The notes beneath the pieces are model-generated. The model was not told where the DNA came from. It did not search any database and worked only from the letters and a program-made list of their open reading frames with translations. A stretch of 64,000 bases of DNA from Blasia pusilla (lineage: Eukaryota). Positions 1 to 64,000 of this stretch are shown here, piece after piece (within the stretch, counting starts at the first letter, position 1; every line of letters starts with the position of its first letter). Both the position numbers and the translations under genes were made by a program. The stretch lies in NCBI GenBank assembly GCA_050084515.1, contig CM114271.1, positions 27,962,001-28,026,000 of the forward strand. The letters run 5' to 3'.

Positions 1-59
1 ATCCACTAACAAATGGGAGGGGCGCTCCACCCTCGCATACGCCCTCCATAACACCACAT

Positions 60-7731: not shown

Positions 7732-8374
7732 AAGACTTCCTAACATCATAACTAACTAATCAAAGTTTGGAATTATTATTTATATTATTCTTAATTGGCC
7801 CTTTAATCTTGACTCATGCTTCAATTGTCACTTTCGCATGACCAATAATAGGAATTTAGAGAATGGAGGACTAGAAACACTATTGAGAAAGAGCAAGCAA
7901 ATGATGCATAATCTCTAGAGGTGCTAACTTATCAAAAAATACGAGTCTTGTGGCAACATCTAGCCATAAGACTAGCCATTCGAATATATTCAAAAATATA
8001 TAAGATACCATATTGATTTGTGGAGAAAAAGATGAAATAAGGCACCGTGTTGCATATCATTTAGGCATGGAAGGAAGACTTGATAGTTTCATCTATTAAT
8101 ACTTCTTATGTAAAGAATCTCCTTGGAGAAAAACCTCTTTTTGCCATTCACACAATGAAGAGTATTTTGAAAAATATGAAATAGAAAATTATAACCACAC
8201 TAAAAAGGTTTATACCATGCGACAACATTACCAATAGAAACAAACTTTACAATCCCCGCAAGCCTTGTGATAATATCTTTACAGTTGTGGATGATTGAGA
8301 ATCTTAAAGAGGAATTAAGTTTGGAACAAGGAGAATCTCTTTTTCAAAAAGGTCAGATTAAAAAAACTAAACTC

Positions 8375-22300: not shown

Positions 22301-25300
22301 CCTCCATCAGTTCTAAGCACTTTCACTTTCAGGCCAAGCTCATTCTCAACCTCATTGACAAAGTGCTGAAATCTGTCCAAGACTTCATCCTTTGTCTTCA
22401 TCAAGTAGACAAACGTCCTTCTTGACTTGTCATCAGTGAAAGAAACAAAGTATTTTGCACCTCCGTGAGATGCTACTTTCATCGGTCCACACACATCAGA
22501 GTGGATGAGCTCAAGCTTTTCTCCTACTCTAGTTTTGGACTTCTTAGGTGTAGAAGTTCTACTCTGTTTCCCTTCTATACAACCTTCACAAAAGAATTCT
22601 GAACTATCAGGTTGTAAATGGAATCCAACAACCATCTTCTGGAGTTTCCTCATATTCTGAATTCCCAGATGTGCTAGTCGCCTATGCCAAGTGTCTAAAG
22701 AATTTTCTTCAGATCCAATGTTGGCCGATTCTTCATCAACATGTGTTGTATGAAGTTTATAAAGCTGATTGTTCACAATCTAAGCTTTCCCGATTTCAGT
22801 TGTATCATGATCAAAAATAATGCAATGATCATCTGTAAACAACACTTTGAAACCCTCACTTGCTAAGACTTTCACAGAGATCAGATTTTTTCCTATCTCA
22901 GGAATATAAAGGACATTTTTGAGAAGTAATTCTCTACAACCTTTCAGATTTAGATGAACTTCACCTTTGGAAGAAGTTTCCAGCTTGTGATTGCTTGCCA
23001 CTGTTACATTGCGTGTAGAGATTTTCTGAATGTTGCTAAAACAACTTCTCTTACCGCACATGTGAGATGTTGCTCCACTATCAATGTACCAAGCATCCCC
23101 AGAACTTGATTCGAATGGTACATCACCTTCCAAAGTCATGAATAGTTGATCATCATCGCTATCTTCAACCACATGAGCTTTCTCGGAAGTGTTGAACTTT
23201 CCCAAGCTTTTCTTCTTGCCTTTCAGGTCTCTCACCTTTTTCCAACAGACCTCTTCTGTATGGTTCAGCATGTTGCAATATTTGCACTTGAGCTTCTTCA
23301 TGCCCTTTTCATTGTACCCTCTCTTACCAACCTTGGCAGCAAGAGCGATCTCATCAGATACATTGTTCCTACCAGCATGCTTCGATTCTTCATTGATGAG
23401 TTGTCCGTTGACATACTCCCAGGTAAGTTTCTTTTTCTCTTGAGCTTCCAGCACAGTACTCACAGTCTCAAAACTCTTAGAGAGAGTGCTGAGAAGTAGA
23501 CCTACTTGGAAAACATCGTCTACTTTGAGACCTCCTTCGATGAGAGTAGAAATCATCCCTTTCACCCTCGCCACATGAGAAGCAACAGGCTCAGATTCGT
23601 CCTGGCGCAAGTTCACAAGGTTCTGAAGGACACTAAAGATGTGTCCTACAGATTCAGTTTGTAAGCCTTCTTTCACAGTCTCCCACATGGCATGAGCATT
23701 TGGTTTGTCACGGGCCATCTCTATAGCAGAGTCTCCCATGTTCATAACCAATGCAGCCATTGCCCTATTGTTGGATTTGATCCATTCTGCATCCAACAGT
23801 TGCATTGCTGTTGGTGCACATTGGACCACTTCCCAACAATCCTCGTGACAACAAAGGATCTTCATTTCAAAAGACCACTTTCTCCAATTAGTAGCGTCTA
23901 ATTTCTTGCTAACCCAGTGATCCATATCACTTCGTGGGCCCATAACCTGAAAGAAAAACAGGAGTAAACAAATACTGACTTTGATTACAGAGCTAATTTG
24001 TTTCTCCAAGCTCCAAGAAGTTACAGCAGATTACAGATACATGGAATAGCTTCACAGACGTCAAATAGGAAAAGGAAACTCTGTACTTACAAAAACATGA
24101 GAGAGATCTGATTGATCTACTACTCACAAACTTCCTCCCTATAGGAAGAAGAGACTCTCTACACTATTGATGCCTTTTCAAGCAGCACACTATCTCCTCC
24201 AGCAGCAGGTCCTCCAAAACATCAACTCCTTCTATCACAATAGGTCAGCCACCCAAGCTGAGGGGCAGCAATCATGAAGTTCGCAGGTCCAGGAAAGTAG
24301 AGAAGAGAATAAGAGTGCTCTGGTATGCCTCTTGCTCTTATAGGATAGCCCCTGGCTATCTTAAACCCTAAAAGTCTTTAACTAAGGCTAAAGGAGGCTA
24401 TTATGAAACCCTAAAGGTTTTTAACTAAGACTAAAAAAGCTATTGCGAAAACCTAAAGGTCTAGTTAATAAACCTAAAAATAGAATTTATCCTATAGATA
24501 GAAAAAATTAACTTTTCATAGTAAAAAACAGATTTTTTCGCTCCTGATCTTACAGTTGCAATTTCAACACTTGAACCATTTTCTTTTGATGTAGTTGCAA
24601 TAAATGCTGATTGTTGAGATGTCCCATACGATTGTGCCAGAGGTTGGATGAACTTCTAGCTATCAAAATTGTCGATGGAGTACAAGGTTGACATTCAATT
24701 AGATACATGCCATGCCTGGCAAAACCTGTACCTAAACAATGACCTTGCTTGATGAGTTCAAAAGACATATTGTGAGAATAGAAAAGGGTATCTATAGAGT
24801 TTTCAGCAAGTTTCTTCACAGAAACAATATTGTGCTGTCCTGTAGGAATGAACAGAACATTGGAAAGAGTATGTAATTTGAAAGAGCCTTTGACAAAAAG
24901 CTTTAATTGAACATTCCCAGTAGCTGTAGCATATATTTTGCCATTGCCTATTCCAAAAATGAGAATTGGAGAAATAGGAAGGAAATTAGAGAACAGTTCT
25001 CTTTGACAGCAAACATGGGAATTTGAACCAGAATCAAGGATCCAAAGTTTGGAAAGATCTGGGAAAATAGATGTAGAGGATCTTTGTATCATAAACAGAT
25101 AGAGTGGTTCATCTGGTTGTAGTTCCTCAGATGTGGAGCATGTTAATGCTTGAGTGATAGGTGAAGTATTGAGTAGTAAAGATGAGGTATCTTCTGGTTG
25201 AGTTTTGCAAAACTCACGGAATTTCTTGAGAAATTTTCTGTTAGGACATTTGCTAGAGATGTGATCTTTCTCATTACAAATGTAACAGTAAGGCTGTTTT

Positions 25301-34300: not shown

Positions 34301-37300
34301 GAACACTAAGTTATCTCTAGCTAACTAAATTAGTATCCAACTAAGTTAGTATTTGACTAACTACTTTTAGGGCATGACCAAACTAGATATTAACAAATTT
34401 CAACAGAGAAGTCTCACATACTCTCTGTTTTGTGCAAAAGCCATAGCAAGATGTGTTGAAATTGCAACTATAAGATCAGGAGCGAAAAAATCTGTTTTTT
34501 ATTATGAAAAGTTAATTTTTTCTATCTATAGGATAAATTCTATTTTTAGGTTTATTAACTAGACCTTTAGGATTTCGCAATAGCCGATTTAGTCTTAGTT
34601 AAAAACCTTTAGGGTTTCATAATAGCCTCCTTTAGCCTTAGTTAAAGACTTTTAGGGTTTAAGATAGCCAGGGGCTATCCTATAAGAGCAAGAGGCATAC
34701 CAGAGCACTCTTATTCTCTTCTCTACTTTCCTGGACCTGCGAACTTCATGATTGCTGCCCCTCAGCTTGGGTGGCTGACCTATTGTGATAGAAGGAGTTG
34801 ATGTTTTGGAGGACCTGCTGCTGGAGGAGATAGTGTGCTGCTTGAAAAGGCATCAATAGTGTAGAGAGTCTCTTCTTCCTATAGGGAGGAAGTTTGTGAG
34901 TAGTAGATCAATCAGATCTCTCTCATGTTTTTGTAAGTACAGAGTTTCCTTTTCCTATTTGACGTCTGTGAAGCTATTCCATGTATCTGTAATCTGCTGT
35001 AACTTCTTGGAGCTTGGAGAAACAAATTAGCTCTGTAATCAAAGTCAGTATTTGTTTACTCTGTTTTTCTTTCAGGTTATGGGCCCCTGGTAAGTGATAT
35101 GGATCACTGGGTTAGCAAGAAATTAGACGCTACTAATTGGAGAAAGTGGTCTTTTGAAATGAAGATCCTTTGTTGTCACGAGGATTGTTGGGAAGTGGTC
35201 CAATGTGCACCAACAGCAATGCAACTGTTGGATGCAGAATGGATCAAATCCAACAATAGGGCAATGGCTGCATTGGTTATGAACATGGGAGACTCTGCTA
35301 TAGAGATGGCCCGTGACAAACCAAATGCTCATGCCATGTGGGAGACTGTGAAAGAAGGCTTACAAACTGAATCTGTAGGACACATCTTTAGTGTCCTTCA
35401 GAACCTTGTGAACTTGCGCCAGGACGAATCTGAGCCTGTTGCTTCTCATGTGGCGAGGGTGAAAGGGATGATTTCTACTCTCATCGAAGGAGGTCTCAAA
35501 GTAGACGATGTTTTCCAAGTAGGTCTACTTCTCAGCACTCTCTCTAAGAGTTTTGAGACTGTGAGTACTGTGTTGGAAGCTCAAGAGAAAAAGAAACTTA
35601 CCTGGGAGTATGTCAACGGACAACTCATCAATGAAGAATCGAAGCATGCTGGTAGGAACAATGTATCTGATGAGATCGCTCTTGCTGCCAAGGTTGGTAA
35701 GAGAGGGTACAATGAAAAGGGCAAGAAGAAGCTCAAGTGCACATATTGCAACATGCTGAACTATACAGAAGAGGTCTGTTGGAAAAAGGTGAGAGACCTG
35801 AGAGGCAAGAAGAAAAGTTTGGGAAAGTTCAACACTTCCGAGAAAGCTCATGTGGTTGAAGATAGCGATGATGATCAACTATTCATGACTTTGGAAGGTG
35901 ATGTACCATTCGAATCAAGTTCTGGGGATGCTTGGTACATTGATACTGGAGCAACATCTCACATGTGCCGTAAGAGAAGTTGTTTTAGCAACATTCAGAA
36001 AATCTCTACACGCAATGTAACAGTGGCAAGCAATCACAAGCTGGAAACTTCTTCCAAAGGTGAAGTTCATCTAAATCTGAAAGGTTGTAGAGAATTACTT
36101 CTCAAAAATGTCCTTAATATTCCCGAGATAGGAAAAAATCTGATCTCTGTGAAAGTCTTAGCAAGTGAGGGTTTCAAAGTGTTGTTTACAGATGATCATT
36201 GCATTATTTTTTATCATGATACAACTGAAATCGGAAAAGCTTCGATTGTGAACAATCAGCTTTATAAACTTCATACAACACATGTTGATGAAGAACAACA
36301 TTGGATCTGAAGAAAATTCTTTAGACACTTGGCATAGGCAACTTCAGCACATCTGGGAATTCAGAATATGATGAAACTCCAGAAGATGGTTGTTGGATTC
36401 CATTTACAACCTGATAGTTCAGAATTCTTTTGTGAAGGTTGTATAGAAGGGAAACAGAGTAGAATTTTACACCTAAGAAGTCCAAAACTAGAGTAGGAGA
36501 AAAGCTTGAGCTCATCCACTCTGATGTGTGTGGACCGATGAAAGTAGCATCTCACGGAGGTGCAAAATACTTTGTTTCTTTCACTGATGACAAGTCAAGA
36601 AGGACGTTTGTCTACTTGATGAAGACAAAGGATGAAGTCTTGGACAGATTTCAGCACTTTGTCAATGAGGTTGAGAATGAGCTTGGCCTGAAAGTGAAAG
36701 TGCTTAGAACTGATGGAGGTGGAGAATACATCAACAAACAGTTAAAAGATTTCTTATCTCAAAAGGGAATCAAGAGTCAAGTTACTGCAAGGAGCAGTCC
36801 AGAGCAGAATGGAGCAGCTGAAAGATTGAATAGGACATTGGTTGAAAGAACCAGGTCCATGCTCTCCACAGCAAACCTTGGTCGAGAATTTTGGGAGAAG
36901 CCTAACTACTGCCAACTACTTGAAGAATTTGAGTCCTTCAACAGCATTGGACAACTTGACACCAGAGGAAGCATGGAGTGGTAAGAAACCAGATCTCTCT
37001 CACCTGAAAGTTTTCGGGTGTTGTGCTTATGTTTTGATTCCAAAGGAGAAAAGAACAAAGATGGACTCCAAATCGGAGAAATGCATATTCTTAGGGTATG
37101 AACCTGGATGTAAAGGGTACAGACTCTTCAATCCAAGCACTAAGAAAGCAATCAGAAGTAGGGATGTCTATTTCAATGAGAAAGATCTTGGTAGCAGCAT
37201 TACTAGCACTGCAGAAGTCAGTTTTGAAAAGGAGTTGACATTCTTTAAAGATATCAAGGTTGAAGAAAATGATGATGAGGTTGATAAATCTCCAAGGAGA

Positions 37301-40300
37301 TTATCTCCAACCAGATTTTACGTAAGGAGAAAGCCTGATGTAGAAAGATCAGAAGTACCATTAGAGAGTACCGATAGTTATCTTACAGGCACAGAGCAAC
37401 AACCTCCAGTTCGAAAATCAACAAGGACATCCAAAATTCCAATTCGACTTGGGAAAAGTCTTGGAAAAGGTGAGACTGACCAGCAAGAAGAAAGATTCAC
37501 AGAGGAATCGCATCTGGCTGAAGTGTGTTACCAAGCCCTTGATAATGCAGGTTGTACATCAGGAATGTTAGAGGCTGATGAACCGCTAAGTCTTGAAGAA
37601 GCTCTCACTAGAGATGATGCCATCCAGTGGGAGCAAGCGGTACATGAAGAGATGGGATCTCTCCAAAGCAATCAGACTTTTGAGGTGGTGAATTTGCCCC
37701 CCATGAGGAAGGCAATCGGTTGCAAGTGGGTCTTCAAAGTGAAAAGAGGACCTAAGAATGAGGTGGTCAAGTATAAAGCTCGACTAGTTGCTAAAGGCTA
37801 CAGTCAGATTGAAGGACTTGACTATGCAGAAACTTTTGCTCCTGTAGCAAAATTTACTTCCATAAGAAGCTTGCTAGCATTAGCGGCAAAGCATAATTGG
37901 GAGATACATCAAATGGATGCAAAAACCGCCTTCCTCCATGGAGAATTGCATGAGGAGATTTACATTCAACAACCAGAAGGTTTCAAGATGGAGACAAGGT
38001 ATGGTTGCTGAAGAAAGCCTTATATGGACTCAAGCAAGCATCAAGACTCTGGTATGAGAAAATTGACGGTTATTTTCAGAAGTTGGGTTTTCACAAGAAT
38101 AGGGCAGATCCTAGTGTTTATCACATGTTGAATATTGTGGTTCACATAGCACTGTATGTAGATGATTTGTTACTCCTCTGTGAAGACCTGAAAACTATGC
38201 ACAGGCTGAAGCGTGGACTGAGTGAAGCTTTTGAAATGGTTGATCTAGGAGAAGTAAATTATTTACTCGGAATACAAATCACTAGAAATAGAGATGTTGG
38301 TTGGATCAAGATGAGCCAAACCAAATATGTGAAGAATGTCATCAATCGTTTTTCTATGGGTGATTGTAATCCAGTAGGGACACCCATGGAGGTAGGAATC
38401 AAGCTTACCAAGGAAATGTGTCCTCAAACTGAATTGGAGATGAATGAGATGGCTAACATACCATATCAGAATGCAGTGGGCTGCATTATGTATGCAATGG
38501 TTGCCACAAGGCCAGACCTTGCATACACAGTGGGAGTTTTGAGCAGGTTCATGCACAACCCTGGCTTGCAACATTGGCAAGCTGTCAAGCGTGTGATGAG
38601 ATACCTGAAAGGCACTCACGACTTTTGCCTCACATATATCAAAGAGGCAGAAGTAGATCTAATTGGTTACAGTGATGCTGATTGGGCAGGAGATCTAGAC
38701 AATAGACAATCTACTTCTGCATATTGCTACTTGCTGTGTGGAGGAGCTATTAGTTGGAGCAGCAAGAGACAATCCACCGTAGCACTTTCCACATGTGAAG
38801 CAGAATACATGGCCCTAACACATGCTGCCAAGGAGGCAATATGGCTTAGACGCCTCCTTGATGGTTTTGGATGCCATCAAGCAAGACCTACAAAAGTGTA
38901 TGCTGATAATCGGGGCAGTATTGATCTAACCAAGAATCCGATACACCATGCGAGGACAAAGCACATTGATATACAACATCACTTTATACGGGAAAAGGTT
39001 GGAGTGGAATTTGAATTAGAACACTGTGCAACAGAGGACATGGCAGCTGACGTGTTCACAAAATCTCTCACCAAGGTTAAACACCTAAGGTGCATGGAGT
39101 TAATTGGAATACACCTGAACTCACATTGAGTGGGAGTGTTGAAATTGCAACTGTAAGATCAGGAGCGAAAAAATCTGTTTTTTACTATGAAAAGTTACTT
39201 TTTTATCTATAGGTAAAATTCTATTTTTAGGTTTATTAACTAGACCTTTAGGATTTCGCAATAGCCGATTTAGTCTTAGTTAAAAACCTTTAGGGTTTCA
39301 TAATAGCCTCCTTTAGCCTTAGTTAAAGACTTTTAGGGTTTAAGATAGCCAGGGGCTATCCTATAAGAGCAAGAGGCATACCAGAGCACTCTTATTCTCT
39401 TCTCTACTTTCCTGGACCTGCGAACTTCATGATTGCTGCCCCTCAGCTTGGGTGGCTGACCTATTGTGATAGAAGGAGTTGATGTTTTGGAGGACCTGCT
39501 GCTGGAGGAGATAGTGTGCTGCTTGAAAAGGCATCAATAGTGTAGAGAGTCTCTTCTTCCTATAGGGAGGAAGTTTATGAGTAGTAGATCAATCAGATCT
39601 CTCTCATGTTTTTGTAAGTACAGAGTTTCCTTTCCTATTTGACGTCTGTGAAGCTATTCCATGTATCTGTAATCTGCTGTAACTTCTTGGAGCTTGGAGA
39701 AACAAATTAGCTCTGTAATCAAAGTCAGTATTTGTTTACTCCTGTTTTTCTTTCAAGATGGAGTTCAGCAATAGCATACCAACTATTCTATATGCAAACT
39801 TATGATGCAAAATTCAAATGAACACTATTCTAAGTTGAGAAATGAAAGCAGCCACACTTGCAATCTTCTACAGTTGTACACACCTTCTTAGAGTCGGTGC
39901 TGAGAGGAGTTGTGACAGTATCAAGACGAAAGGCTTGAGCGAGAAGCCATGTGACATGATTACTGCGCATGACTGGTTGCTCCCCAAGGGTAAAACGTGC
40001 CGCTAGTTTATAAATGAACTCCAGAAAGTCTATGTAACCACTGCGCATGAAGAAGTAAAAAAGGTCTGCAAAACTCAGCCACTCTTGCCATCGACCTGCC
40101 TCAGTCATTGAAACATGAACTGAACCATTGCCTGAAGCACACGATAACAATTGAGTTACATAAAGAACACACTTGGGATAGAAGAATCATCACAGAAACA
40201 CCTACAGAAATCCGAATAAAGTTAACACTCAGGTAGCCTTGTGAGGTCATCGGTCTGTTCAATGTACTGAGTATCTTAGAACGCTCATGAGGCACCAGCA

Positions 40301-51059: not shown

Positions 51060-51950
51060 ATTCCACCTCGCAGCTCCACCTCCATCCTCTGAAAAATCGA
51101 GCTTGCTCACTCAAACTTCCTCCCTCCCTCCCTCCCTTCGAGATCAGAGTTGGCTCCATGCTCGCTCAGAGCGCGAGTTGAAGCAAGCTCGCCTCGCTCT
51201 GCCCGCCCTTTGCTGCTCGCCTCGCTCAGAGCGCAATCCCGAGCTTAAACAACTCGAGCTCGTTTGAGCTTGAGCTTGAGCTCTCTCTCCTCCCTTGGAG
51301 CCTCTCTCCGCCCCCCGCCGCTCACCTCGTTGAGAGCGTGAGCTCTCTCTCCTCCCTTAGAGCCTCTCTTTCCGTCCTCTGCCTTGCTCCACCCGCTCTC
51401 CTCTACTCGCCTCCCTCATAGCAAAAGCGAGAGCGCAAGCTCGAGATCATTTGAGCTCGAGCTCTCTCTCCTCCCTCAGAGCCTCTCTCTGCCCTCCCCC
51501 TCGCATTGCCCGCCCTCCGTTGCTTGCCTCACTCAGAGAGCAAGCTCGAGCTCTCTCTCCTCCCTTGCCTTCCTCCGCCCTCCGCCTCACCTCAAGCTTG
51601 ACCTCCTTGCCTCGCCTTGAGCTCGACCTCCTTGCCTTGCCCGATCAAACCTTCTCTTCTCTCCTCTCTCGCCACTTTGCTTCGAATCCTATTGAGCTCC
51701 TACACGTTGCTCGCTTGATCCCTCCCTCGATCCCGATCAAACCCTCTCTCCTCTCCTCTTGCTTGACAATAGGTTTGATTCTGATCGAACCCTCTCTCCT
51801 CTCCTCTCGCTTGACAATGGGTTTGATGCCAATCAAACCCTCTCTCCTCTCCTCTCCTCTCGCTCGATTCCAACTGCGTTCCTCCCCTCTCTCCGCCGCT
51901 CACGCTTCGCCTCCCCTTCGGAGCTCTTGCTCGGCCCTGCCTCTCTGGCT
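51060..51950. repeat. pyrimidine-rich degenerate repeats inside the MULE
   Basis: Recurrent GAGCTCTCTCTCCTCCC and a ~48-bp tandem unit at about 51735-51865. Confidence 0.75.
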
Positions 51951-52032
51951 GCTCCTCCCGCCGGTAACAAAATTCTATTGCCACCCGAGCATGCTCAGGT
52001 AGCCCCGCCGCGACCTCAGGTTAGCTTAACCC

Positions 52033-52399
52033 TGTCATGACCATACGGATTATGTCGTAGAGTATAGTGTGCTAGTAGAGGCCATACCTTATGTAGGGCC
52101 GCAGTGTTTAGGTAGAGATGCGATTTCATACATAGGGTTGGGGGTTACTCGATTGAGGGAGAGTTTTCCAGTAGGGCCCGCTCTTAGGTTGGAGGATATA
52201 AGGTGGAGTGCACTCAAAGAACAGTCAGTTCTTTGAGTTGAGCCTGTTGCGTTGGGAGTTAGCCTTGGTAGTGAGTAGAGCTCTTGGCTATGGTGTTTCC
52301 CCAAGCTTTGACCTAGATTCTCCCATCGTGGAGTGGGTTTGGCTCGATTGTATGTGATTCTATATGTGTTTTATGACAGTAGGTTTTTCACGAATTTCA
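52033..52399 (+). repeat. repeat A1
   Basis: Direct repeat of 62239-62589, with roughly ten differences including a ~17-bp indel. Confidence 0.95.
52197..52238 (+). promoter_or_regulatory. candidate TATA box and transcription start of the retroelement
   Basis: TATAA at 52197-52201. AGTTCTTTGAGT starts 30 nt downstream and is complementary to 52399-52410. Confidence 0.55.
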
Positions 52400-53810
52400 C
52401 TCAAAGAACTAGAGTCGATCGATTCTAGCTTCGATTGTGGATCAGTAGGATCTGGTTAGGGTTGATTGTGTACTCAGCCGTGGATGTTCGTGGCTTGTGG
52501 CCTATGTTGGAGGTGTGAATCTCGTGGGTGGTTGGTTGGGAAAGAAGCGCCTTGCTAAGAGCTTTCCAACTCGCTTTAGATCGCTGGATTTCATCAAGGA
52601 ATTTGGAAGTTATCAAGGATTGAAGATTCTGGTTCGTGTTCGACGGTTTTCTGATGTGGAGAGCTTGCAGTGCGGAAGCTCTGTTGAATTTCATCCAGAT
52701 CAGGTGAGAGTTTCCTGTTGCTACTTGTATTGTGATCTCGTATGAAGCTATCTGCTCGAGTGTGTGGAGTGTTGCGGATTTCTGCGTGCATGAAACTGGG
52801 CGGAAGCGCTGTCGGATTTGCAATTCTGGAGGTGTATGGACAACCAGTTTGTCTGATTTTTAGCTCGGAGTACAAAGCTTGGTTGTAGCTGATTTTTTGT
52901 GGAGAGATAGCTATGGTGGACAGCGGATTAGAGAGGCTGGTTGGTTGGTGACTCGTTCATTGTTGGAGATGCCTATCCCGTTGGGGGCGCCCTGGTTGGG
53001 CCTCTCCCCACAGCAAAGCATGGCGAACGGGGCATGTCTCGAGCATTTCTCGGCATTTCGAGGCTTCGAGGCAACTCGTGGTAGCTCGGGGCGAGTGGGC
53101 GTGAGAGGCAGAGTAAGGAGCAAGGAGCAAGCAAGCAAGCTTGCTTGCTTGGGCGTGAGGCAGTTTTTGCAAGATTTGTGATTTGAGTGTTGCATAACTG
53201 GTCACCCATCTTTGGGCTATTATGCCTGGAGGACGCTTAACTGCTGAGTTCTTAACTATGTCAAGGTACACACTGGTGTAGCTCATTTGGTGCTCTTTGG
53301 AGATGTGTTAGGCGCTTTATGCATCTTAGGTTTTTTATTGATGTACCTCTAGCGCATAGTACGGTGTAGCCTCTCCATGCAAGTGATATTTTCAGGTGTT
53401 GCGAGTCCGACTAGCACGTCATCGACCCGCGGCGGAGTAGCTATTGCGTTAGAATTGTGTGGTGGGTTCTGTGGATTCAGGGGGCGCCACATTTGGTGGA
53501 TTGTGTTACCTTGATTTCCATTTGCGAGTGGAGGGTTGTCGTTGGACTTCCTGTGTTTGAATCCCCTCCATCGTTGCTTCTTGCTTGCGCGCCCATTGTT
53601 AGGGTTGACGCTGATTTCCAGAGTAGTGTTACTCCTGTGTGCTATCGGTAGTGAGGCTATAGTGATGACCAGCAGACCGTGGGAGGCTTTTTGTGGTGAT
53701 GACAGGTTGGGTTGCCTACACCCATAGCTAGTAGAGCTAGAATAGTATAGCGACATCGACGTCACTTGGTTACTTAGTGGTGGTAATTTGGTGGTGGTGC
53801 GGCATCGGCG

Positions 53811-55300
53811 TTGGTCATCACGGAGCTGTCGGGTGGTCTGGTTGGGGACCGTGGTGCAGACAGTGGTGGTTTCACACGGAGTGGATTTAGGTATCGGCTA
53901 TCTTTTCCACTTTCGACGGTTGATGAAGAGGAGGACGAGGGTGTTCCAAACACCGAGTCTTCTACGTTTTTATCGAGTGTTGCAGCTCCATTGATTTGGG
54001 ACATGGACGGGATATATGGGTCCATGAAGGGCCCACGACGATACTCGAGTGCAGTGGGCACCATTGAGTTGGAGGACTTCATGCAGGAGTTTGATACGTG
54101 GTGTGATATGCAGATGTTGCGGAACGCCACTTTGTTTACACCCTTCTTGGTTTGGAAGGGGTTGTTTCAGCACTTGGAGGGACCACCCATGGATGATAAC
54201 CATGAGTTAAGGAAGGACCATGTTGCTGAGATTAAGGCATGGAGACAATATTGGTCTCCAGGCTATGTGTCTATCACCCATGGTGGTATTGGTAGTAGTG
54301 CTCCTACTATGCCATCCAGCCCGACGTTGAGTGGTACGAGTACGAGCCGGAGTGGGGGTACCAGTGGAGGTACCAGTGGGGGTACTAGTGGAGGTACTAG
54401 TGCCCCACCATCGTTTAGCCCGGTTGCACAGTTCTTCAAGAGGTTGAAGAAGAACTATCAAGGAGTGAAGACAGAGAAGTTGAGGAGTCTTCAAGAATTT
54501 GAGCGAAAGATTGGTGAGAGTCTTCGTGAGGCATACACTCGTATGCGACGCTTAATTTCAGTTACCAGGTGTGGCGAGGCTCAGCGATCCAGTTTTGGTA
54601 TGGGATCTTGGGGAGAGAGTTGCGCCAGTAGGTACGTGATGCTACTCTTATGAGTGATGATTCACCCACATTGACCCATGTGTTTGCTCTATCTGAGAGG
54701 ATTGAGCTTAACATGGTGAAGGAGAGAGTGGTGACATCCGCATTCAGTAGGGATACAACTACTACTTCTCGTGTTCAGCAGCCCACCTCACAGTCTCGTA
54801 GTAGTGGTGGTGGTAGTAGTAGTGGGAGTCGTGGTCGTAGAGGGACACTTGCGCAGAGACCATTGCCTTTATTTGCTGCCCCGTAGCAAGGACAGTCATG
54901 TTGGACATGTGGAGATGATCATGTTAGGAATTTTTGTCCCCAAGAGGATGGGAGACGGACTTTGGAGGATGGGCCTCAGTCGGCACCAACTCAGTGTGAT
55001 CATTGAGGGAGACCAGGTCATCCTCGAGAGCGTTGCTTTGATCTTCATCCAGAGTTGAGATCAAGCCGCGGTCGTGGTGGAGTAGCTCCGAGAGGCCGAG
55101 GTGGTAGAGGTGGACTAGTGGTTGGAGCGCCTACGGTGGCCACCCCTACCACTACGACAGAGTCAGCTATGGCTGCCAGGATTGAGCAGTTGGAGCAGAA
55201 GTTGGCTACTATGGCTGGTATCCAACATAGATCAGGTTCGGGAGGAGGGGCTTCCACCTCTTATGGAGGGGATTATCTCTCTTATATGGCGAAAGAGTGC
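53811..55300 (+). pseudogene. gag with two zinc-knuckle remnants
   Basis: Retrotransposon gag-like GESLREAYTRMRRL; CWTCGDDHVRNFC and CDH*GRPGHPRERC; GGTS repeats. Confidence 0.75.
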
Positions 55301-55773
55301 AAAGACGTTGAGTTGAGGCATCGATTTGCGATTCTGAGAGGAGCCACTCGGCGTCGAGCCACGTGGTGATCTTGTGGAGTTGGACCCATAGAGGGGTGAG
55401 GTGGGGAGGCGGCTAGGCTTCCTGGTCATTCTTGTTGTCTCGAGGTGCTTAGGACTCCATCCATGGTTCCTATGCAGCCTATTGAGCCGACAGTGGGGAT
55501 CGAGGCATCTACATCGCGTGTAGTAGACACGGATGCAACATCTAGTCTTGATTGCGGATGGCAACCAGTGTTGGGATCCCCATTGTTTTAAACCCACGGA
55601 GGCGATGGCTTTAGGAGTTGACTTAGCTCATGTATTTGACTCTCGGACCACGTTGTGTGAACGTGGGGTGTTATTCTTGCACGTCTTTGAGGTGGATGAG
55701 GGTGTTGCGGTGGAGCAACCCTCTATGTCGTGTAGCATTGAGTACCAGTGCTACTTAGCGAGCGGCGGCGAAG

Positions 55774-56240
55774 ATGGATGCATTACCACCGGCCACCATT
55801 GATCGTGAGAGGCTTACACCTGGTGTATGTATGTTGGACAACTGGAGTGGGATATTCCGATTGGTGAGTCCTACAGGACAGGTGTATAGACCAGATAGAG
55901 TCTTGTTAGACTCTAGTGCCCAACCTTTGATGTTGGGAAAGGCGGCATATATTGGTTTGGGTATTCGGAGGTCAGAGCTTGAGCCTTGCCCATTCCAGAT
56001 TCAAACATCGCTTGGAGGAGCCAATGATAGGTCTCAATTCATTACACGGGAGAAGTTTTATGAACAGTTGAGACCAGATCATGCGATTGATAGCTCCCGG
56101 TTGGGAGTATCTGCGGTAGTCACATCAGCCGAGTCGTATGATGTACTAGTTGGAGGAGCAGTATTGTACCCGATGGGTTTTCAGATGGATTCTTTGGTGA
56201 GACACATCTTATAGACCTGGTTGGCAGTCCGGGGATGGAC
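55774..56240 (+). pseudogene. retropepsin-like aspartic protease
   Basis: VLLDSSAQ (DSG-like) and YDVLVGGAVL (xxLG motif). Confidence 0.75.
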
Positions 56241-56619
56241 GTATGAGCCATGTTCCTGTGAGATTTATTTATGGGGCTCGACGAGGAGGGTCTTCCCCAA
56301 CAGTGTTAGCATCTGTGGCTGGTTTTAGTGGAGTAGTCACTTGGCCAGGAGACTTTTTGGAGGGTAATGTTTCTGCTATGGATTCTCCTATGCATGAGGA
56401 GGTAGAGGAGGTCCCTATTTTTGCAGCACTGGCATCCTCATCGTTGGATGTGCCACTTTGGAGTTCAGGCGGTGCACTACGGCAGAGGCGTCGCCTAGTG
56501 CAGAGGCTTGGTGTGAGGTTATACCTCACGAGGAAGAGGAGGCCTCACGGCGGACTCCTACTTCTGGTCCAGTTGGGTTATCCCCTTTGGATACTACAAC
56601 CATTGTATGGCAGTATCCG

Positions 56620-57560
56620 CCGGAGGGCATTTGTGTGTTAGATCTCTTTGGTGGAATTAGCACTGGTTTGGCTGCAGTGTTGCAGGCCGGTATTCTTGTG
56701 CGGAGATTCGTGTATGTGGAGCGAGATGAGACGGCCCAGAGAGTCTCATCCTGACATATTGGTCAGTTAATGGGGAGATATCCTGAGTTGTTGCCGCCAT
56801 CAGCTATTCGTGGGTACCAGCGTGCTTTGCCGTCACACATTTCATTGTTGGGGGCGCAGGACCTTGAGAGGGTTGGCCCTGTGGATTTGGTGATTGCTAG
56901 ATGGCCATGTTAGGGTCATACACGTGCTGCTCGTGGTGAGGGATTACACGACCCTAGATCTCGATTGTTTTGGGAGATGTTACGGGTATTACGATATCTT
57001 CAGGTTCATCAGGCACGTGCTCTAGCTTACATTCTGGAGAATGTTCCATTGTTGGGTGACACTCTGACCCGGATGATGGCGAGTGTTCATGAGGTGCGGT
57101 CTTGGATCGGACCAGCGGTGTTGTTGGATGCTGCGCAAGTTGGCTCGCGTGCACATCGTCCACGCTTGTGGTGGACAAACTTGTTGCCTAGGGAGGTTCT
57201 ACGTCGAGCATATGATGCAGTGCAGCGGGATCCTTGCCTTACAGTGGAAAGTATCTTGGACACTGGGCGACTTTCTCAGGTGGTGAGGGTTATTGATCGA
57301 TCACCCATGGCAGTGGTGAACCGTGTGGGCCAACCTAGGATGGCACTACCCACATTTGTGAGTTTTCCCTCATCACATGCATACAGGGACGGTGGTCATG
57401 GGCTTGTATGGGATTCTCATATGCGACAGTTGGTGAAGCCTAACGCTGATGAGAGAGAGCGTGCGATGGGATTTGCTACTGGTGTGACAGCGGTTTCTTC
57501 CATTTGTGAGGCTTCACGACGTCATGTGTTGGGTCAGGCCATGGACTTGAATTGTTTGAC
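56620..57560 (+). pseudogene. C5 cytosine DNA methyltransferase domain (DNMT3/DRM-like motifs), in frame with RT, with two premature stops
   Basis: Motif I VLDLFGGISTG; II YVERD; IV VDLVIARWPC*G; V DPRSRLF; VI ILENV; VIII RAHRPRLWWTNL; IX ERERAMGF; X RRHVLGQAM. Confidence 0.9.
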
Positions 57561-57869
57561 TTGGATTTTGAGTCTTGGTATGGCCGAGCAACGTCAACTC
57601 TGGACTATGTATGTGGGTCTTCCACCCCTTGTAATGAGCTCGATGGCTACAGGGACGGTAGGGGCATCGGCTGGGGGCGAGGAGAGTAGTATTTTGCATC
57701 CTTGGAGTAAATGGGATGTAATGGTTGGGCATGTGGAGTTTGTTGCTCATGCTGGTAGAGGAATTATTTGCTCAGATGATGGTGTAGCTAAGGGTGTACC
57801 ATCTTGTGAGGGGGTTATGAGTGACCTATGGCATAAATCCTCTCCCTCTAGTGTGCCAGTGGAGGAGAC

Positions 57870-59250
57870 TTGGGAGCCATTACTTGGGCCCAAGTTTACG
57901 GGAGGTGAGAAACGACGCTTGACACAGTTCCTACATGCTTATAGGAGTTGTTTTTCCTTTAGCATAAAGGAGTTGGGTTCTCTGGTGGGACCCGGTATAC
58001 GGATTGATTTGGCTAGTGATACGCCAATCTTCCGTCGTCCCTACCGATATTGTGACATGGAGAGGGACCTAATTCAGAGTAGGACGTTGGACCTTTTGGA
58101 GGCTGGATTAGTGGAGTTGTCGCGTGGAGAGTATGCATCAGCCACTGTGATGCCTGCTAAAAAGGATATGCATGGCAACTACACGGATAGGCGGATGTGT
58201 GGAGATTACCGTCCTATCAATCAGCAAACCAAGGCCGATAGGTATGCCATGCCTACACCTGAGGAGATCTTTGATGTGGTGGGACAGGCAAAGATTTTCT
58301 GTGCTTTGGATCTTCGGGCAGGATACCATCAATTGCCGATTCGGGAGAGTGATAAGGCCAAGACATCATTTTGGGGTGTCAACTCTCATGGCAAGGATTG
58401 TTTGTACCAGTGGAAATTCTTACCCTTTGGGTTGAAGAATGCATCTGCCGAGTTTTAGAGAATGATGGACAGGATCCTAGTAGGGTTGGATTTTTTTCGG
58501 TGTTACATCGATGATATCTTGGTGTTCAGTAACACGGTGGAGGAGCATCAGATACATTTGCAGATGGTGTTTGAGCGGTTGAAAGCTCATGGTCTACGTT
58601 TGCATCCAAGAAAGTGTAAGTTCTTCCATGAGGATGTTGAGTACTTGGGTCATGTGATCTATCCAGGTGGTTTGGGAGTTCAGCAAGCAAAGGTGGAGGC
58701 TATTGCACTTATTCCGCGTCCGGTAGATGTGAGTAGAGTTCAAGCATTCATGGGATTGGCAAACTACTATCGGAGGTATGTGAAGAGATTTAGTGCTATG
58801 GCAAAGCCTTTGAACCAATTGCTGAAATCAGATCAAGAGTGGCATTGGGGAAATGATCAGGAGAGAGCTTTTGTGGAGCTTAAGGCCAAGTTGGTGGCAA
58901 CGCCTATCTTGAGGAGACCTATCAGAGGGCGCCCATTTCAGTTACACACTGATTGGAGTAGGTTGGGACTTGGAGCGGTGTTGACACAACATGATGATGA
59001 GCACATGGAGTTTGTGGTGGTTTATGCAAGTTGTTCGAATAATGCAGCGGAGTCGCGCTATAGTTCATATGAGGGAGAGTGCTTCGCAGTAGTGTGGGCT
59101 GTGGCACACTTTAGGTGTTACTTGTTTGGCATATAGTTTACCCTTGTTACTGATCACCAGCCGCTTAAGTGGTTGATGAAGTCTGACAAGCTTACAGGGA
59201 AGCTTGCACGATGGGCTCTTATCTTACAGGAGTATGACTTCCAAGTGGTA
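57870..59250 (+). pseudogene. Ty3/gypsy-type reverse transcriptase and RNase H
   Basis: RMCGDYRPIN, LDLRAGYHQ, LPFGLKNA, YIDD, KCKF...YLGH, LHTDWS, YSSYEGE, TDHQPL, LARWAL; stops at 58456 and 59134. Confidence 0.95.
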
Positions 59251-59699
59251 CATAGACCTGGAGTTGCCAACCTTGATGCTGATGGGTTGAGTAGGAACCC
59301 ATGTACTAGCCAAGAAGATACAACATGGGCTAGATGGCATGGCGAGGTTGTTGAGGAGATGGTGCCAGGTTGGCATGCATCCGCCTTTTTATGTTGGTTA
59401 GGGGTGGACTATAGTATGGAGGACCACATGATATCTTACTCTAGTCAGAGGGTAGATGGCCAGCCTTCAGATCCTAAGGTGGGAGATGGTGGTACGGATC
59501 AACGTGATATTCATGATGATGCATTAGTGTTGGAGTTCCTACGGACCAGTAGGGTACTAGGCATAGTGAGTGCCAAGGAGCAAGACCGTGTTCTTCAACG
59601 TGCTAAGAGGTATCAATTGGAGGGAACACATATTCTCCGTGTGTGGGAGGATGGTAGAGTACGAGTAGTGCCGCATTTGGCGAGAGAGAGCGCACAGCG

Positions 59700-60919
59700 A
59701 CATGCCCATGAGGAGTTGGGACATTTTGGGGTAAAGCGTACGTATAGCTTACTCCTTGGTCAGTATTGGTGGCGTGGCATGCATCGAGGTGCAGCGATTG
59801 GTGTCACATTGTATGGTTTGTGACCGGGTGAGGGCATCATTCAATGCCCCTACACCACGATTATACCCTTGCCTATTATGGGGTTGGAGTTCTTTGTTGG
59901 AGTGTGGACTTTTGGGACCGTTACCGTTGGATGCGACATCATCGATATGTGTTGGTGATGGTGGAGCACTTCTCCATGTGGATTGAGTTGGTGGCATTAC
60001 GACAAGGCAAGTGAGGAACGGCGTATGCGTTTCTTGATAGAGTGCTTAGTCATTTTGGTGCACCGGTTGAAGTCTTTGACCGACTAGGTACAAAGTTTGT
60101 GGTGAGTTTGGTCTTGTGTGACAAGGCATTGATTGATCATCGGACCACGTCTCGAGATCATCCGAGGCGGATGGTTTGGTGAGCCTGTGGTTGAGATGGT
60201 GAAGAGGGCATTGCGCAAGTATGGCCTCTGAAGGACATCTTGGAGACCAGGATATTCGGTTGCAATGGTTAGCCATAGGGTATAGGTTCGATCGCCAAGC
60301 ATCCTTGGCTTCCTTCTCACCTTATTTTTACGTTATACGGCCGAGATCCAGACTTGCCAGCAGCAATTCGTCGGGAGTCTAGTGAGGTGGTGAACCTTGA
60401 TGACCCAGAGATGTGGATGAGAGGGCAGAGCTCTTTCGGAGAGTTAAGCCAACAGCCTTTGAGAATCTTGCCATTGCTCAACATAGAGATACGTTGTGGT
60501 ACGCAACCATTCGGGGTGGAGGTTATCGACCATCGATTCGTAGGTTCCATGTGGGAGACTATGTCTATTTGGAGCAGATTGCACCGAAAACCTTGGATGT
60601 GACGGCAGGCCGCACTATTTTACGATTGCGCGAGGTGTTAGCTTCTGGAGTTCTCATGTTGGAGGGTTGTGATGGAGTTGTTTGGAAGGACCATGTACGT
60701 AATTGTGTGCCATGTCATCTTCCAAATGTGGATGGTACTGTTGACCCAAGCTTAGCCATGATACGTGCTAGCTTGAGGTGCATATTGTGTGGGTCTGCTG
60801 GTAACGCAACCCGTATGTTGGTGTGTGATTGGTGTTCTAGGGGTTGGCACATGATGTGTTTGACTCCACGTATGGATGTTGTTCCTACTGGAAGGTGGGT
60901 TTGTCCTCGATGTACTTAG
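59700..60919 (+). pseudogene. integrase with C-terminal PHD finger (60779-60913)
   Basis: HEELGH...YWW...CMVC; frameshifted core; FHVGDYVYL module; CILC...VCDWCSRGWHMMCLTP...WVCPRC (C4HC3). Confidence 0.9.
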
Positions 60920-61055
60920 GAGAGGTAGATGACTTGATCTTTGCATGATATGGATTACAGATGTGCGACTAACGATGGGGCAACCTAGCACGCGGCCTTC
61001 TGATTCGTGCACCCAAGAAGGTATATAGCATGTAGTAGATGTATAGGGCTACCTG

Positions 61056-62088
61056 TGTCGTGCGCCTACTCTCCTTGAACGTTAATCTTGTTTGTTGCGG
61101 AAGCGTGCGTTCAGTAGGTCACGCTCTCAACGCTGATCTGCATCCAAACACGCACTTCGGTTAGTCGGGTCTTGGATCAATCAGCGGGATTACTTTCCGA
61201 GTTCTCGTCTCGGACTCTCTCTTTAAGCTCAACCTTCCTAGTTTCGCGGTTTCCAACACGGGCAAGTCTCGAAAGACTTGGGACAGACTTTCTGGTCGGT
61301 TCAGGAATCTGAAACGGCATTTCGCGCCTAGCGGTTCCAACTATCCGATGAACATCCAATGAGTTCCTCACCAAGACTCGCACGAAGTGAATCTCGGGTT
61401 GGAATCCAAGTGTGGCGTACAAAGTCCACTCCCTTGGATCAGGTTTGGGTTTCGGGTTTCCGCGCCAAACTCCCGTTTCATCCCGTGCCTCTGAAACGCC
61501 GTTTGGCGCCCAAAGTGGGGTTTCGTTTCCCGAGACATCTCAGAGAAGGTACTCCCCTTACTAGTACTTCTGGGGATCTCCGGGGGCCCCCTACATTTAG
61601 GGAAAGACACCCGGGCCTCTCCAATTGGCCCTCAACCCGATTGCTCTCTGAATTGTTTTCGGCCAATATCTCAGCCTATACTTATGCGTTTGCTAAGATC
61701 TTTGGTGCGTTGGAAGCGTCTTGAGATCAGCTTTCCAACGCGCTCTTACTTGTCCCAAACGCATCTTGGAGCTCAACGTTATGGTCCTAAACACAGTCAG
61801 ATTCTCCCAAACGCTAGTCGTGTTCCAAACTGGTTCTCACCTCTTTGGCAACCAACCTCCAAGACTCAACTCATCTCAAGTCTGGGCTCGCGTTTGGTCT
61901 AGGTTTCCTGGTCGCGACCACTAACGCATGAAACGCACAACTCTGTTCCGCGTTTCATCTCTTAGACTTTTCCAAGAGACTCTTCCAAACGCCTCTCCAA
62001 AGCGCAAACCTCGCGGCATGAGTTCCTTTGAGTTCTGATGTTTCGCTTGGCGCGTATTTGGTGTTGTTTGGTTATGAGGGTCGCGACA
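61056..62088. mobile_element. solo LTR (1033 bp) nested in the 3' UTR of copy 3
   Basis: Ends TGTCG...CGACA; 5-bp TSD ACCTG (61051-61055 / 62089-62093); absent at the matching position of copy 2 (~6955). Confidence 0.85.
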
Positions 62089-62129
62089 ACCTGGGAGTTA
62101 GAGGGACGTTACTTCCAGTTAGGGGGGCG

Positions 62130-62696
62130 AGTTGTGGTACACTTGTGTTTGTGGATGCTCTCGTCTATGTTATGTATGTATGTGAGTATGGTATGTCAGC
62201 GATGTATGTTGTATGACGATATGGATTCGCACGACAGCTGTCATGACCATACGGATTATGTCGTAGAGTATAGTGTGCTAGTAGAGGCCATACCTTATAT
62301 AGGGCCGCAGTGTTTAGGTAGAGATGTGATTTCATACATAGGGTTGGGGGTTACTCAGTTGAGGGAGAGTTTTCCAGTAGGGCCCGCTCTTAGGTTGGAG
62401 GATATAAGGTGGAGCAATTCTTTGAGTTGAGCCTGTTGCGTTGGGAATTAGCCTTGGTAGTGAGTAGAGCTCTTGGCTATGGTGTTTCCCGCAAGCTTTG
62501 ACCTAGATTCTCCCATCGTGGAGTGGGTTTGGCTCGATTGTATGTGATTCTATACGTGTTTTATGACAGTAGGTCTTTCACGGATTTCAAGTTGTGGTAC
62601 ACTTGTGTTTGTGGATGCTCTTGTCTTTGTTATGTATGTATGTGAGTATGGTATGTCAGCGATGTATGTTGTATGACGATGTGGATTCGCACGACA
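62130..62696 (+). repeat. B1-GC-A2-B2 terminal repeat block
   Basis: B1 (62130-62236) and B2 (62590-62696) are 107 bp with 3 mismatches. A purine tract AGGGGGG lies just before B1. Confidence 0.95.
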
Positions 62697-64000
62697 ACCC
62701 GAGGATGAATAGGCGCAAGGAGAGGATAAAATACCAACTCATTGTTTATAGACAACTACCCTGGTCATATAATTACGACAACAATTAGCATAGATTGTCT
62801 AATATCCAATGATGTGTTAAAAATGTATAAATCATGTAGCACTCAATCATAAGTGACTATTATTTTCATGCAATGATTGATAATAAATAATCAGGTTGTA
62901 TGATAATGATTACAATTCATTCATGTAGTTGTTGCATTACAACTTTGCATATCTAAATGAGTGAAAATTTTATGACTATGAAAGGCATATTGGGTTGTCA
63001 TGTTATGACTAGGAATGTCTTACAAAGTTGTCACATTATGAATATACAAGTTATAGCATTATGTATGCGAATGATTGAATTAGTTTTCTTTGGCAAAGAA
63101 TGATTAGAGTAGTAATTTTATAATCACTAATGAATTGAGTTCTTAATGAATGTTAGTCCTCATGTAATAACTTGAAGGTATTTGACTCTTATGGTTATAT
63201 TGTAGAACTCATCTTGTCATTGTGGACTACACCCGGAGTCATTTTAGTAGGACTAGAGTTACTTCATGATGCATTTAGTGTGGTTTTTTGCATGTATTAT
63301 CAGCTCAAAATGGTGGATGACTATATAATAAAGAATTGTCTTCCACAAATAAAAACCTTCATTAAAAAATCCCAATAGAACTTGCTTGATATAAATGAAT
63401 TAAGTAATGTAAACATGTTGTAATTATTGGAACTCATAACAAATACAATTACATTTGAGTTTAAGAAGCTATAGAGCCAAAAATTTAATTGAAAAAAATC
63501 AGATTATGTAAGATAAAACTTGTGATAAGCCATAACAAAATTCAAAATTGGACCATATATCTTTGATAATTAAAGATCTAATGCAACACCTTCCTCGTAT
63601 GCATTTTAGGCTAAAGCATGCTTGTCCCCAATGCATCCGCAAAAGTCAATTTTAGTACTTTTTCCTCTATGGTTCACAATCCATAACATCTATCAAATCT
63701 ACTTGCACGATGCCTATGCGCATGATGGCACGAAAACAGGCTTGTCTGTCCATGGGAAAAATATGTCCATAGATATGCCCAACGAGTCCCCTACACATGG
63801 TTTTTTTGTATCCTAGTGGCCCAGGAGAATGGATCGGAGCTCAAATGAAGGGAGGTGACCAATGATTGAATGGGTGTATAGGCTATGAGCTCCTATTTGG
63901 TCTGCACCTAGCGTGCAAGGCCCACTCTAAGCCCACATGTTATGGGCCCTATGCGGGCCAAGTGGGCTCGGTGCAGGCCTCTACGCTTGCACCGAGCCCA

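Follow-up and report, generated by a model that had tools for sequence, protein, structure and literature searches.

A Ty3/gypsy-type retrotransposon family of Blasia pusilla with a predicted integrase attachment site inside its long terminal repeat

Integrases of the retroviral type are held to act on the ends of linear complementary DNA (cDNA), and circular forms are usually regarded as dead ends. A model of integration from a circle junction is said to go back to Panganiban and Temin in the 1980s, and the palindromic junction between two long terminal repeats (LTRs) of HIV-1 is reportedly cleaved by integrase in vitro. Elements of the DIRS type are not known to insert with an integrase-type target-site duplication. 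Among described elements, KnitGypsy-Dnmt3 of Klebsormidium nitens is a Gypsy LTR element with a Dnmt3-type domain in Pol, and the legend of Fig. 4c in the same paper presents its repeats as DIRS-structured and its domains as Gypsy-like (PMC5890265); a 2026 preprint names the group Gypsy-DNMT3 of streptophytes (10.64898/2026.05.21.726589). Here, we analyzed a stretch of 64,000 nucleotides of Blasia pusilla DNA (GenBank assembly GCA_050084515.1, contig CM114271.1, positions 27,962,001 to 28,026,000 of the forward strand), referred to as the window, which holds three copies of an element that we compare with these systems. In copy 1, on which the analysis is centered, a repeat A and a repeat B are arranged as A1-internal-B1-GC-A2-B2, so that the right end of the element (the end of B) and its left end (the start of A) also meet internally, in a palindrome. 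We consider it probable that this palindrome consists of the integrase-recognized termini ...CACGACA and TGTCATG..., placed head to head 2 nt apart inside the reverse-transcribed LTR, and that end-joined cDNA is re-opened there before insertion.

The joint between B1 and A2 of copy 1 reads CACGACA-GC-TGTCATG and occupies 62230-62245 of the forward strand. Its context is ...gattcgCACGACA-GC-TGTCATGacc..., the exact 16-mer is CACGACANNTGTCATG, and the core is GACAGCTGTC (62233-62242). An earlier note on this DNA, made from the letters alone, had claimed that the right and left ends of the element stand two bases apart at this place and that copy 2 keeps the joint, and both claims were confirmed, the joint of copy 2 being CACGACAGCTGTTATG (Table 1). 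When up to 2 mismatches were allowed, the 16-mer had 5 matches in the window against 0.44 expected, a number reached by none of 100 shuffles; 2 of the 5 matches (19963 and 39039) fall inside an unrelated repeat.

The conservation of the palindrome across copies had been set beforehand as a test, and the test was passed. With the region of the integrase C-terminus and the PHD finger as a query, 80 metagenome loci with 40-84% protein identity were fetched, and 60 of them were scorable, that is, B-like sequence was seen downstream of the PHD domain; the unscored loci comprised 15 with less than 700 nt downstream and 5 that were divergent. A B-NN-A joint was present in 32 of the 60 scorable loci, namely 31 loci that show the full B-A-B arrangement and belong to 16 insertion groups, and one locus (L008) cut by the end of its contig, and the spacing from CA to TG was exactly 2 nt in all 32. 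Another 25 loci end at the first B with an unrelated flank, and 3 are truncated otherwise (L004, L050, and L077). The exact 16-mer pattern was found at the same position in 17 of the 80 loci, with near matches there in 15 further loci.

The dinucleotide within the joint was GC in 6 insertions (5 groups and L008) and in both window copies, AC in 4 groups, GT and AT in 3 groups each, and TC in 1 group. All variants except TC are one or two transitions away from GC, and samples of one insertion disagree with each other (GC/TC, GT/AT, and AT/AC), with three insertion groups being mixed (L006 reads TC, L040 AT, and L071/72 AC). Because the variants are mostly transitions from GC and samples of the same insertion disagree, the variation would be a result of decay after insertion, which may be expected for CAG/CTG sites of a methylated plant genome. 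In a DNA contig of run X1, which is from the same species as the window, the joint is present in the variant form CACGGCA-AT-TGTCATG. Five loci with long downstream sequence (L020, L025, L026, L027, and L069) had no recognizable B and carried other, longer repeats. The first four of these form a divergent subgroup (43% identity) with 600-745-bp direct repeats that lie 2,460 bp apart after the PHD domain.

The sites thought to start the two cDNA strands were located next. A polypurine tract, AGGGGGGCG, is immediately 5' of B1, which bears out a purine tract that the earlier note had described there, and a G-run of at least 5 was present directly 5' of B1 in 15 of the 17 B-A-B representatives and in 16 of the 18 loci that end at the first B (B-only loci). 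A primer site was likewise expected after A1; such a site, ACTCAAAGAACT, does adjoin the end of A1, and what had to be corrected is its kind. It is an exact 12-nt reverse complement of AGTTCTTTGAGT within A1, the predicted 5' end of the genomic RNA, which could fold back as a primer, and no tRNA-type primer site is obvious after A1, in that there is no TGG start, although no scan against a tRNA set was made. The bases after A1 pair with a site in A over 12 nt in copy 1 and L006, 13 nt in L037, 10 nt in L054, 8 nt in L076, and 16 nt in copy 3, and self-complementarity of 8-16 nt was thus found at all six 5' ends examined. Since three distinct primer-site sequences (ACTCAAAGAACT, AATTCTAGAAAAA, and ACAAAGAGAGAATGAG) are used across the subfamilies and the pairing is nevertheless kept, the pairing covaries across three subfamilies. 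The paired site is 21-33 nt downstream of a TATA-like box in the four metagenome loci, and an alignment of the A copies places it, in subfamily 1, in the second arm of a small hairpin. We infer that the primer site is a signature of Tf1-like self-priming.

Because the polypurine tract abuts the start of B and the primer site abuts the end of A, the reverse-transcribed LTR would extend from B-start to A-end, as B-GC-A. This arrangement supports the earlier proposal of B+A as the replicative LTR. The outer ends of this unit are AGTTGTGG or ATACATG on the left and ...ATTTCA or ...TTCAAT on the right, and they have neither a conserved TG/CA nor an inverted repeat.

The ends of the inserted copies are different. 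They begin with the A-start TGTCATG and end with the B-end CACGACA or CATGACA (its inverted repeat), and the GC is missing from them. Four of the five complete B-A-B elements are flanked by 4-bp target duplications (ACCC for the window element, CATA for L006, TTTA for the L037 group, and TCAA for L054), and the fifth, L076, is unclear. Thus, support was obtained for two further suggestions of the earlier note, that the integrase ends (TG at A-start and CA at B-end, as an inverted repeat) lie inside the B+A LTR and that the inserted form is A...B lacking the GC. Termini of the TG...CA type with a short target duplication are as in Ty3/gypsy elements, and the insertion appears to be of the integrase type and not by site-specific recombination.

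The joint between A2 and B2 was exact in 6 groups of subfamily 2 and was shortened in 4 groups by the AT that is common to ...CAAT and ATACATG. It was extended by 1 nt from the primer-site side in the window copy and L028 and by 1 nt from the tract side in L009, and it was shorter by about 3 nt in L076. Such a variable A2|B2 joint, compared with the fixed spacing of the B|A joint, fits a new joint made by end joining beside one copied from a template.

The enzyme type was assessed by a six-frame Pfam scan of copy 1, in which stops were read as X and matches were taken at E<=0.01. RVT_1, RT_RNaseH, Integrase_H2C2, and PHD were above cut-off, and DNA_methylase and rve were weak. The methyltransferase domain is placed between the protease and the reverse transcriptase, and its translation in copy 1 has one in-frame stop immediately after a PC dipeptide, the region of which we take to be the site of the catalytic motif in C5 methyltransferases, and a second stop upstream. 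PF00145 reaches 35-45 bits in the relatives P0003 and P0053, the latter of which also carries Asp_protease_2 at residues 24-108. The DDE core of copy 1 is frameshifted and has stops, with frames 1, 2, and 3 all being required to track P0018, a relative with 75% identity to copy 1 over 650 residues, in which rve (42.9 bits) is above cut-off and H2C2 reaches 59.7 bits. P0018 matches Ty3 Gag-Pol (7q5b, E 6e-91), Ty3 reverse transcriptase (4ol8, E 3e-75), and PFV integrase (E 6e-16). Homologues with 36-81% identity carry, in various pieces, PF00145, PF00078, PF17919/17917, PF17921, PF00665, PF13650, and PF00628, and those named are from the liverworts Calypogeia, Marchantia, and Riccia, plus Sphagnum. 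The Pol order of protease, reverse transcriptase, RNase H, and integrase with a Ty3-like reverse transcriptase is that of Ty3/gypsy elements (Metaviridae), and so is a DDE (rve) integrase with H2C2, which is weak and broken in copy 1 and above cut-off in P0018. The predicted domains, taken together, identify the element as a retrotransposon of the Ty3/gypsy type that has a DDE integrase and an inserted C5 methyltransferase and ends, at the C-terminus, in a PHD finger; in copy 1 it is decayed.

Table 1. Positions of the element, its repeats, cis sites, and coding regions in the window.
Feature	Position	Strand	Remarks
Copy 1, element	52033-62696 (10,664 bp)	+	A1-internal-B1-GC-A2-B2; starts TGTCATG, ends CACGACA
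Left target-site duplication ACCC	52029-52032	+	...ttaACCC/TGTCATG
A1, 5' copy of repeat A	52033-52399	+	93% identical to A2; starts TGTCATG; TATAAG box and hairpin CTCAAAGAAC...GTTCTTTGAG inside
AGTTCTTTGAGT in A1	52227-52238	+	predicted 5' end of genomic RNA folding back as primer, by complementarity
Primer-binding site ACTCAAAGAACT	52399-52410	+	predicted self-priming kind; adjoins A1 end; exact 12-nt reverse complement of 52227-52238
gag-like open frame	53787-54653	+	no Pfam match; similar frame in copy 3 at 1913-2593 (-)
Protease-like region	55834-56202	+	tblastn match to P0053 residues 3-123; no Pfam match in copy 1 itself
C5 cytosine DNA methyltransferase domain	56578-57804	+	PF00145 21.6 bits, cut-off 22; 2 in-frame stops
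Reverse transcriptase and RNase H	58183-59235	+	RVT_1 100.6 bits, RT_RNaseH 113.9 bits
Integrase: H2C2 zinc domain and DDE-core remnant	59668-60164	+	Integrase_H2C2 32.1 bits; rve 23.9 bits, under cut-off 32.6
PHD finger, C-terminal end of polyprotein	60779-60913	+	PF00628 35-39 bits
Nested repeat TGTCGTG...CGCGACA	61056-62088 (1,033 bp)	+	flanked by 5-bp duplication ACCTG; outside the usual layout of the family
Polypurine tract AGGGGGGCG	62121-62129	+	immediately 5' of B1
B1	62130-62236	+	ends CACGACA; 97% identical to B2
A2	62239-62589	+	93% identical to A1 (repeat finding, BLAST, alignment of A copies)
B2	62590-62696	+	ends CACGACA; 97% identical to B1 (repeat finding, BLAST)
Right target-site duplication ACCC	62697-62700	+	CACGACA/ACCCgagg
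Copy 2	5021-7732	+	~70% identical to copy 1; 5' end truncated at 5021
Copy 2, B1'	6995-7118	+	B-A-B tail
Copy 2, joint	7112-7127	+	CACGACAGCTGTTATG (CACGACA-GC-TGTTATG)
Copy 2, A2'	7121-7628	+	B-A-B tail
Copy 2, B2'	7629-7732	+	B-A-B tail
Copy 3	1-5013	-	extends past left end of window

The observed layout and its conservation, the cis sites as placed by position and covariation, the termini, the duplications, and the enzyme type can be brought together in the following cycle. The RNA would start in A1, about 20-33 nt past the TATA-like box, and end in A2. Its 5' end would fold onto the site just after A1 and prime the minus strand as in Tf1, as the covarying complementarity suggests, and the plus strand would start at the G-run directly before B1, judging from its position. 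Linear cDNA would thereby have the form (B-GC-A)-internal-(B-GC-A), with B-start and A-end as its outer ends, neither of which offers the conserved TG/CA or the inverted repeat. Because these ends of reverse transcription differ from the inserted ends, and because circular permutation of (BA)-internal-(BA) yields the inserted copy, the cDNA ends would have to be joined and one B-GC-A opened. The joining may occur within a molecule, yielding a 2-LTR circle, or between molecules, and it would create the A|B joint found at A2|B2 (62589/62590); we picture the joined intermediate as a circle, and an end-to-end concatemer would yield the same product.

The DDE integrase would then cut 3' of both CAs in one palindrome, with a 2-nt stagger that leaves recessed CA-3'OH ends with 5'-GC overhangs and exposes the TG...CA ends. 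Recessed CA-3'OH ends with a 5' overhang are the normal substrate of strand transfer. The permuted molecule would be inserted by the integrase with a 4-bp target duplication, and opening of the palindrome in the 5' LTR would result in A-internal-B-GC-A-B. This would be the propagating form, because it is the sole product that keeps the R region at both RNA ends and hence could replicate again. The internal GC would never be remade, each cycle copying it from B1-GC-A2, and A-internal-B copies could have arisen later by B1/B2 deletion or could have been inserted directly, from 1-LTR circles or from linear cDNA that was cut twice. In this cycle the LTR-internal attachment site is well supported, and the RNA ends, the joining step, and cleavage by the integrase are inferred. 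In its fullest form, which we put forward tentatively, the proposal is that of a streptophyte lineage of DDE-integrase retrotransposons in which the attachment site has moved into the LTR interior and the cDNA is not a substrate until it has been circled (2-LTR) or concatenated and re-opened at an inherited CAGCTG-centered palindrome. This would be a natural case of obligatory circle-junction integration, with a layout convergent with that of tyrosine-recombinase elements and with A-internal-B copies as dead-end insertions from 1-LTR circles or linear cDNA.

Several observations weigh against this cycle. All copies are decayed, with no frame of more than 464 aa in any of the 80 loci and with stops and frameshifts in copy 1, and we know of no active integrase for the family. 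No circle or concatemer was observed in the DNA data, which consist of assembled contigs and are unable to reveal extrachromosomal forms. The sister product A-B-GC-A-internal-B, which is expected if either palindrome of a circle can be opened, was found in none of the six B-A-B elements with a visible 5' end (copy 1, L006, L008, the L037 group, L054, and L076). What comes nearest to it is copy 3 only, which bears just the last ~60 nt of a second A. On the minus strand, its 5' end consists of A' (5013-4497), B' (4496-4387), and a repeat of the last ~60 nt of A' (4390-4331) with the putative 16-nt self-priming site; B' is complete and ends in CACGACA followed by one T, the break sits exactly at CACGACA/T, and most of the second A is missing. 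This 5' end may derive from the sister product A-B-A-internal-B or may result from aberrant reverse transcription.

RNA reads of the two runs X22 and X23 also bear on the cycle unfavorably. Three and nine reads connect 62696 straight to 52033, so that the B-end meets the A-start without the GC. Neither of the two sets of DNA contigs (X1 and X3) contains this connection, and variant copies, tandem copies, and extrachromosomal DNA in the library are candidates for the source of the reads. The RNA ends are hinted at weakly in these runs, with 9 fragments beginning at 62400 and 5 ending at 62448. Furthermore, the classes of the A|B joint partly follow sequence variants of the A end, and they could be inherited or result from slippage. 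Finally, many copies stop at B (25 of 60 loci, ~40%), which was not predicted by the model of the earlier note, and the complete B-only example L016 has no target duplication.

The B-only copies lead to the alternative that survives best, which refines the proposed cycle rather than opposing it. They may be the primary product, made by cutting an ordinary linear cDNA at both of its palindromes or a 1-LTR circle at its only one, with B-A-B elements arising less often, as a by-product of joined molecules, but alone sustaining the lineage. We regard this as possible, if on balance unlikely. It accounts for the 25 loci, which represent 20 insertion groups with unrelated flanks and come from every subfamily sampled, and for the 4-bp duplication ATGT that flanks the B-only copy L001; the same structure, with the duplication kept, would, however, also arise by deletion between B1 and B2, which are direct repeats of 115-180 bp about 450-530 bp apart, and L016 has no duplication. 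L001 and L016 are the only B-only copies with a recoverable 5' end, since none was obtained for L047 and the contigs of the others end before it. In L001, at 5150-5170, the 5' repeat is shrunk to TGTCATTTTC directly before the primer site, with the ATGT duplication still flanking. There, the element may have used a second TGTCAT close to the end of A as its terminus, or A may have been lost by microhomology.

A DIRS-like restoration of the ends is less probable still, and we consider it rather improbable. In such a mechanism, B1-GC-A2 would act as an internal template or splint, comparable to the internal complementary region of DIRS-1, that rebuilds and joins the ends while a transcript extending from A1 to B2 is reverse-transcribed, and the closed molecule would be inserted at the restored B|A with no end joining by the host. 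The topology of the repeats, A1...B1-A2-B2, is indeed that of the split direct repeats of PAT and Ngaro elements (PMC7192593; PMC5890265, legend of Fig. 1e), and the repeats of the Klebsormidium Gypsy element are called DIRS-like by the authors who described it (PMC5890265). However, the full retrovirus-like set of cis sites, with a predicted self-priming site at A-end and a polypurine tract at B-start, predicts a B-GC-A LTR with no splint, and a variation of a few bases at the A2|B2 joint is unexpected if the ends are restored from a template. The tyrosine recombinase of DIRS elements is also missing, as the six-frame scan of copy 1 gave no Phage_integrase (PF00589) at E<=0.01 and PF00589 is listed for none of the 93 homologues, and the 4-bp target duplications, which are unlike the insertions of DIRS elements, point to a DDE integrase.

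Far less probable, to the point of being hardly tenable, is a one-off rearrangement, in which a conventional A+B LTR (TG...CA) lost its 5' B and gained an extra B before the 3' LTR, or in which tandem LTRs produced an artefact. A+B taken as a unit does start with TG and end with CA, and the 5' end of copy 3 does have A' followed by B'; the same layout is nevertheless present in 16 independent insertion groups and 2 window copies, with the primer site after A and not B and the polypurine tract before B and not A. A conventional A+B LTR as such was also considered and was rejected because the primer site and the polypurine tract would be on the wrong sides. That the palindrome is a chance sequence with no role, for which nothing but its short length speaks, can practically be dismissed in view of the shuffles and of its recurrence, exact or nearly so, at the same position across the loci.

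The comparison with known systems is consistent with a combination of features. Identical terminal LTRs flanked by the primer site and the polypurine tract, as in Ty3/gypsy elements, are not present, since a whole LTR exists only in the internal B-GC-A, with a lone A at the 5' end and an additional B at the 3' end. Two hallmarks of Gypsy-DNMT3 elements were found, that is, a C5 DNMT domain inside a Gypsy Pol and DIRS-like A-coding-B-A-B repeats. KnitGypsy-Dnmt3 shares these two features with the element, as compared by description and not by sequence, and differs from it in its host, Klebsormidium as against a bryophyte lineage here, and in the PHD finger, which is present here and has no occurrence in the text of PMC5890265. 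Neither a joint sequence nor a primer site, a polypurine tract, a target duplication, or a model of integration is given in the main text of that paper, and its supplements may hold some of these. Together with the naming mention in the 2026 preprint, the paper was the only literature found on DDE-integrase elements with split repeats. Thus, the layout is already in print, and within these sources, the supplements of PMC5890265 aside, we found no published account of the joint palindrome, the primer site, the polypurine tract, the duplications, an integration model, or bryophyte members.

PAT-like, Ngaro, and SymbioDIRS-Dnmt3 elements resemble the element in the topology A1-coding-B1-A2-B2 and in an internal joint of the termini that is thought to reflect a joined or circular intermediate. 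They encode a tyrosine recombinase and no DDE integrase, whereas the reverse is the case here, with 4-bp duplications. Tf1, Sushi, and Tcn1 elements have no tRNA-type primer site and have a post-U5 site that pairs with the start of their own RNA, as the putative self-priming site of the element would; the likeness concerns the predicted kind of primer site and not reverse transcriptase phylogeny, and, unlike the element, they have ordinary LTRs whose ends are the integrase ends. In plants, self-priming has also been predicted for two lineages, Tcn1 and TAR (PMC6317226). In 2-LTR circles, the palindrome at the LTR-LTR junction is cut by PFV integrase into processed ends (PMC1180852). The likeness to the retroviral junction is in a CA...TG palindrome of both ends that can be cut into 3'-processed ends able to integrate. 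In retroviruses, however, the palindrome forms when the cDNA ends are joined, and integrase can also use the linear cDNA directly, whereas here the palindrome is inherited in the LTR and the cDNA ends have no TG/CA, so that joining would be obligatory. Up to cDNA synthesis, the element may work as a Ty3/gypsy element does, and from then on in the manner of a retrovirus that integrates from a circle junction.

The DNA contigs of runs X1 and X3 show that the family is highly repeated. In the two stranded RNA runs, the element was covered at depths of about 10-185, with the first mate nearly always on the minus strand, which means sense RNA in most stranded libraries. Only 46 and 24 RNA reads were at least 99% alike to copy 1, indicating that mostly other copies are expressed. 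Some RNA reads (16 and 31) skip 980 nt of the integrase region, from 59467 to 60448, with 10 other letters at the joint, and others (6 and 6) skip 6,439 nt from 54088 to 60528, that is, from gag to the integrase C-terminus; because of these skips, internally deleted members of the family appear to be transcribed.

The nested 1,033-bp repeat of copy 1 is probably a solo LTR from another family, and most copies of the family are without it, as indicated by X3 DNA contigs and X22/X23 RNA reads that connect 61050 to 62089. Two blocks within it (61472-61546 and 61558-61608) had 37-107 RNA reads per boundary with flanks unlike the window, as if they were also present in other abundant transcripts. 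An Rfam scan of 51500-63200 gave no family at the gathering score. Elsewhere in the window, 19263-24570 and 34453-39755 are two element copies of ~5 kb, each with direct repeats of ~300 bp that are 4.68 kb apart and 99-100% identical. The two copies point in opposite directions and share 99-100% identity over more than 4 kb, and they are either a pair of very young LTR elements or the halves of an inverted duplication.

The anatomy of the sequence alone indicates that an end-joined intermediate would be needed, since the ends of reverse transcription differ from the ends of insertion. For annotation, this layout means that standard LTR finders will mis-call such elements, half of the copies having no terminal repeat at all. 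If the proposed cycle is true, the family would offer a natural system for asking whether an integrase cleaves an internal palindrome in vivo and why the A-B-A-B layout arose independently of tyrosine recombinases. It would also be a natural system for understanding how a retroelement carrying a methyltransferase persisted in early land plants.

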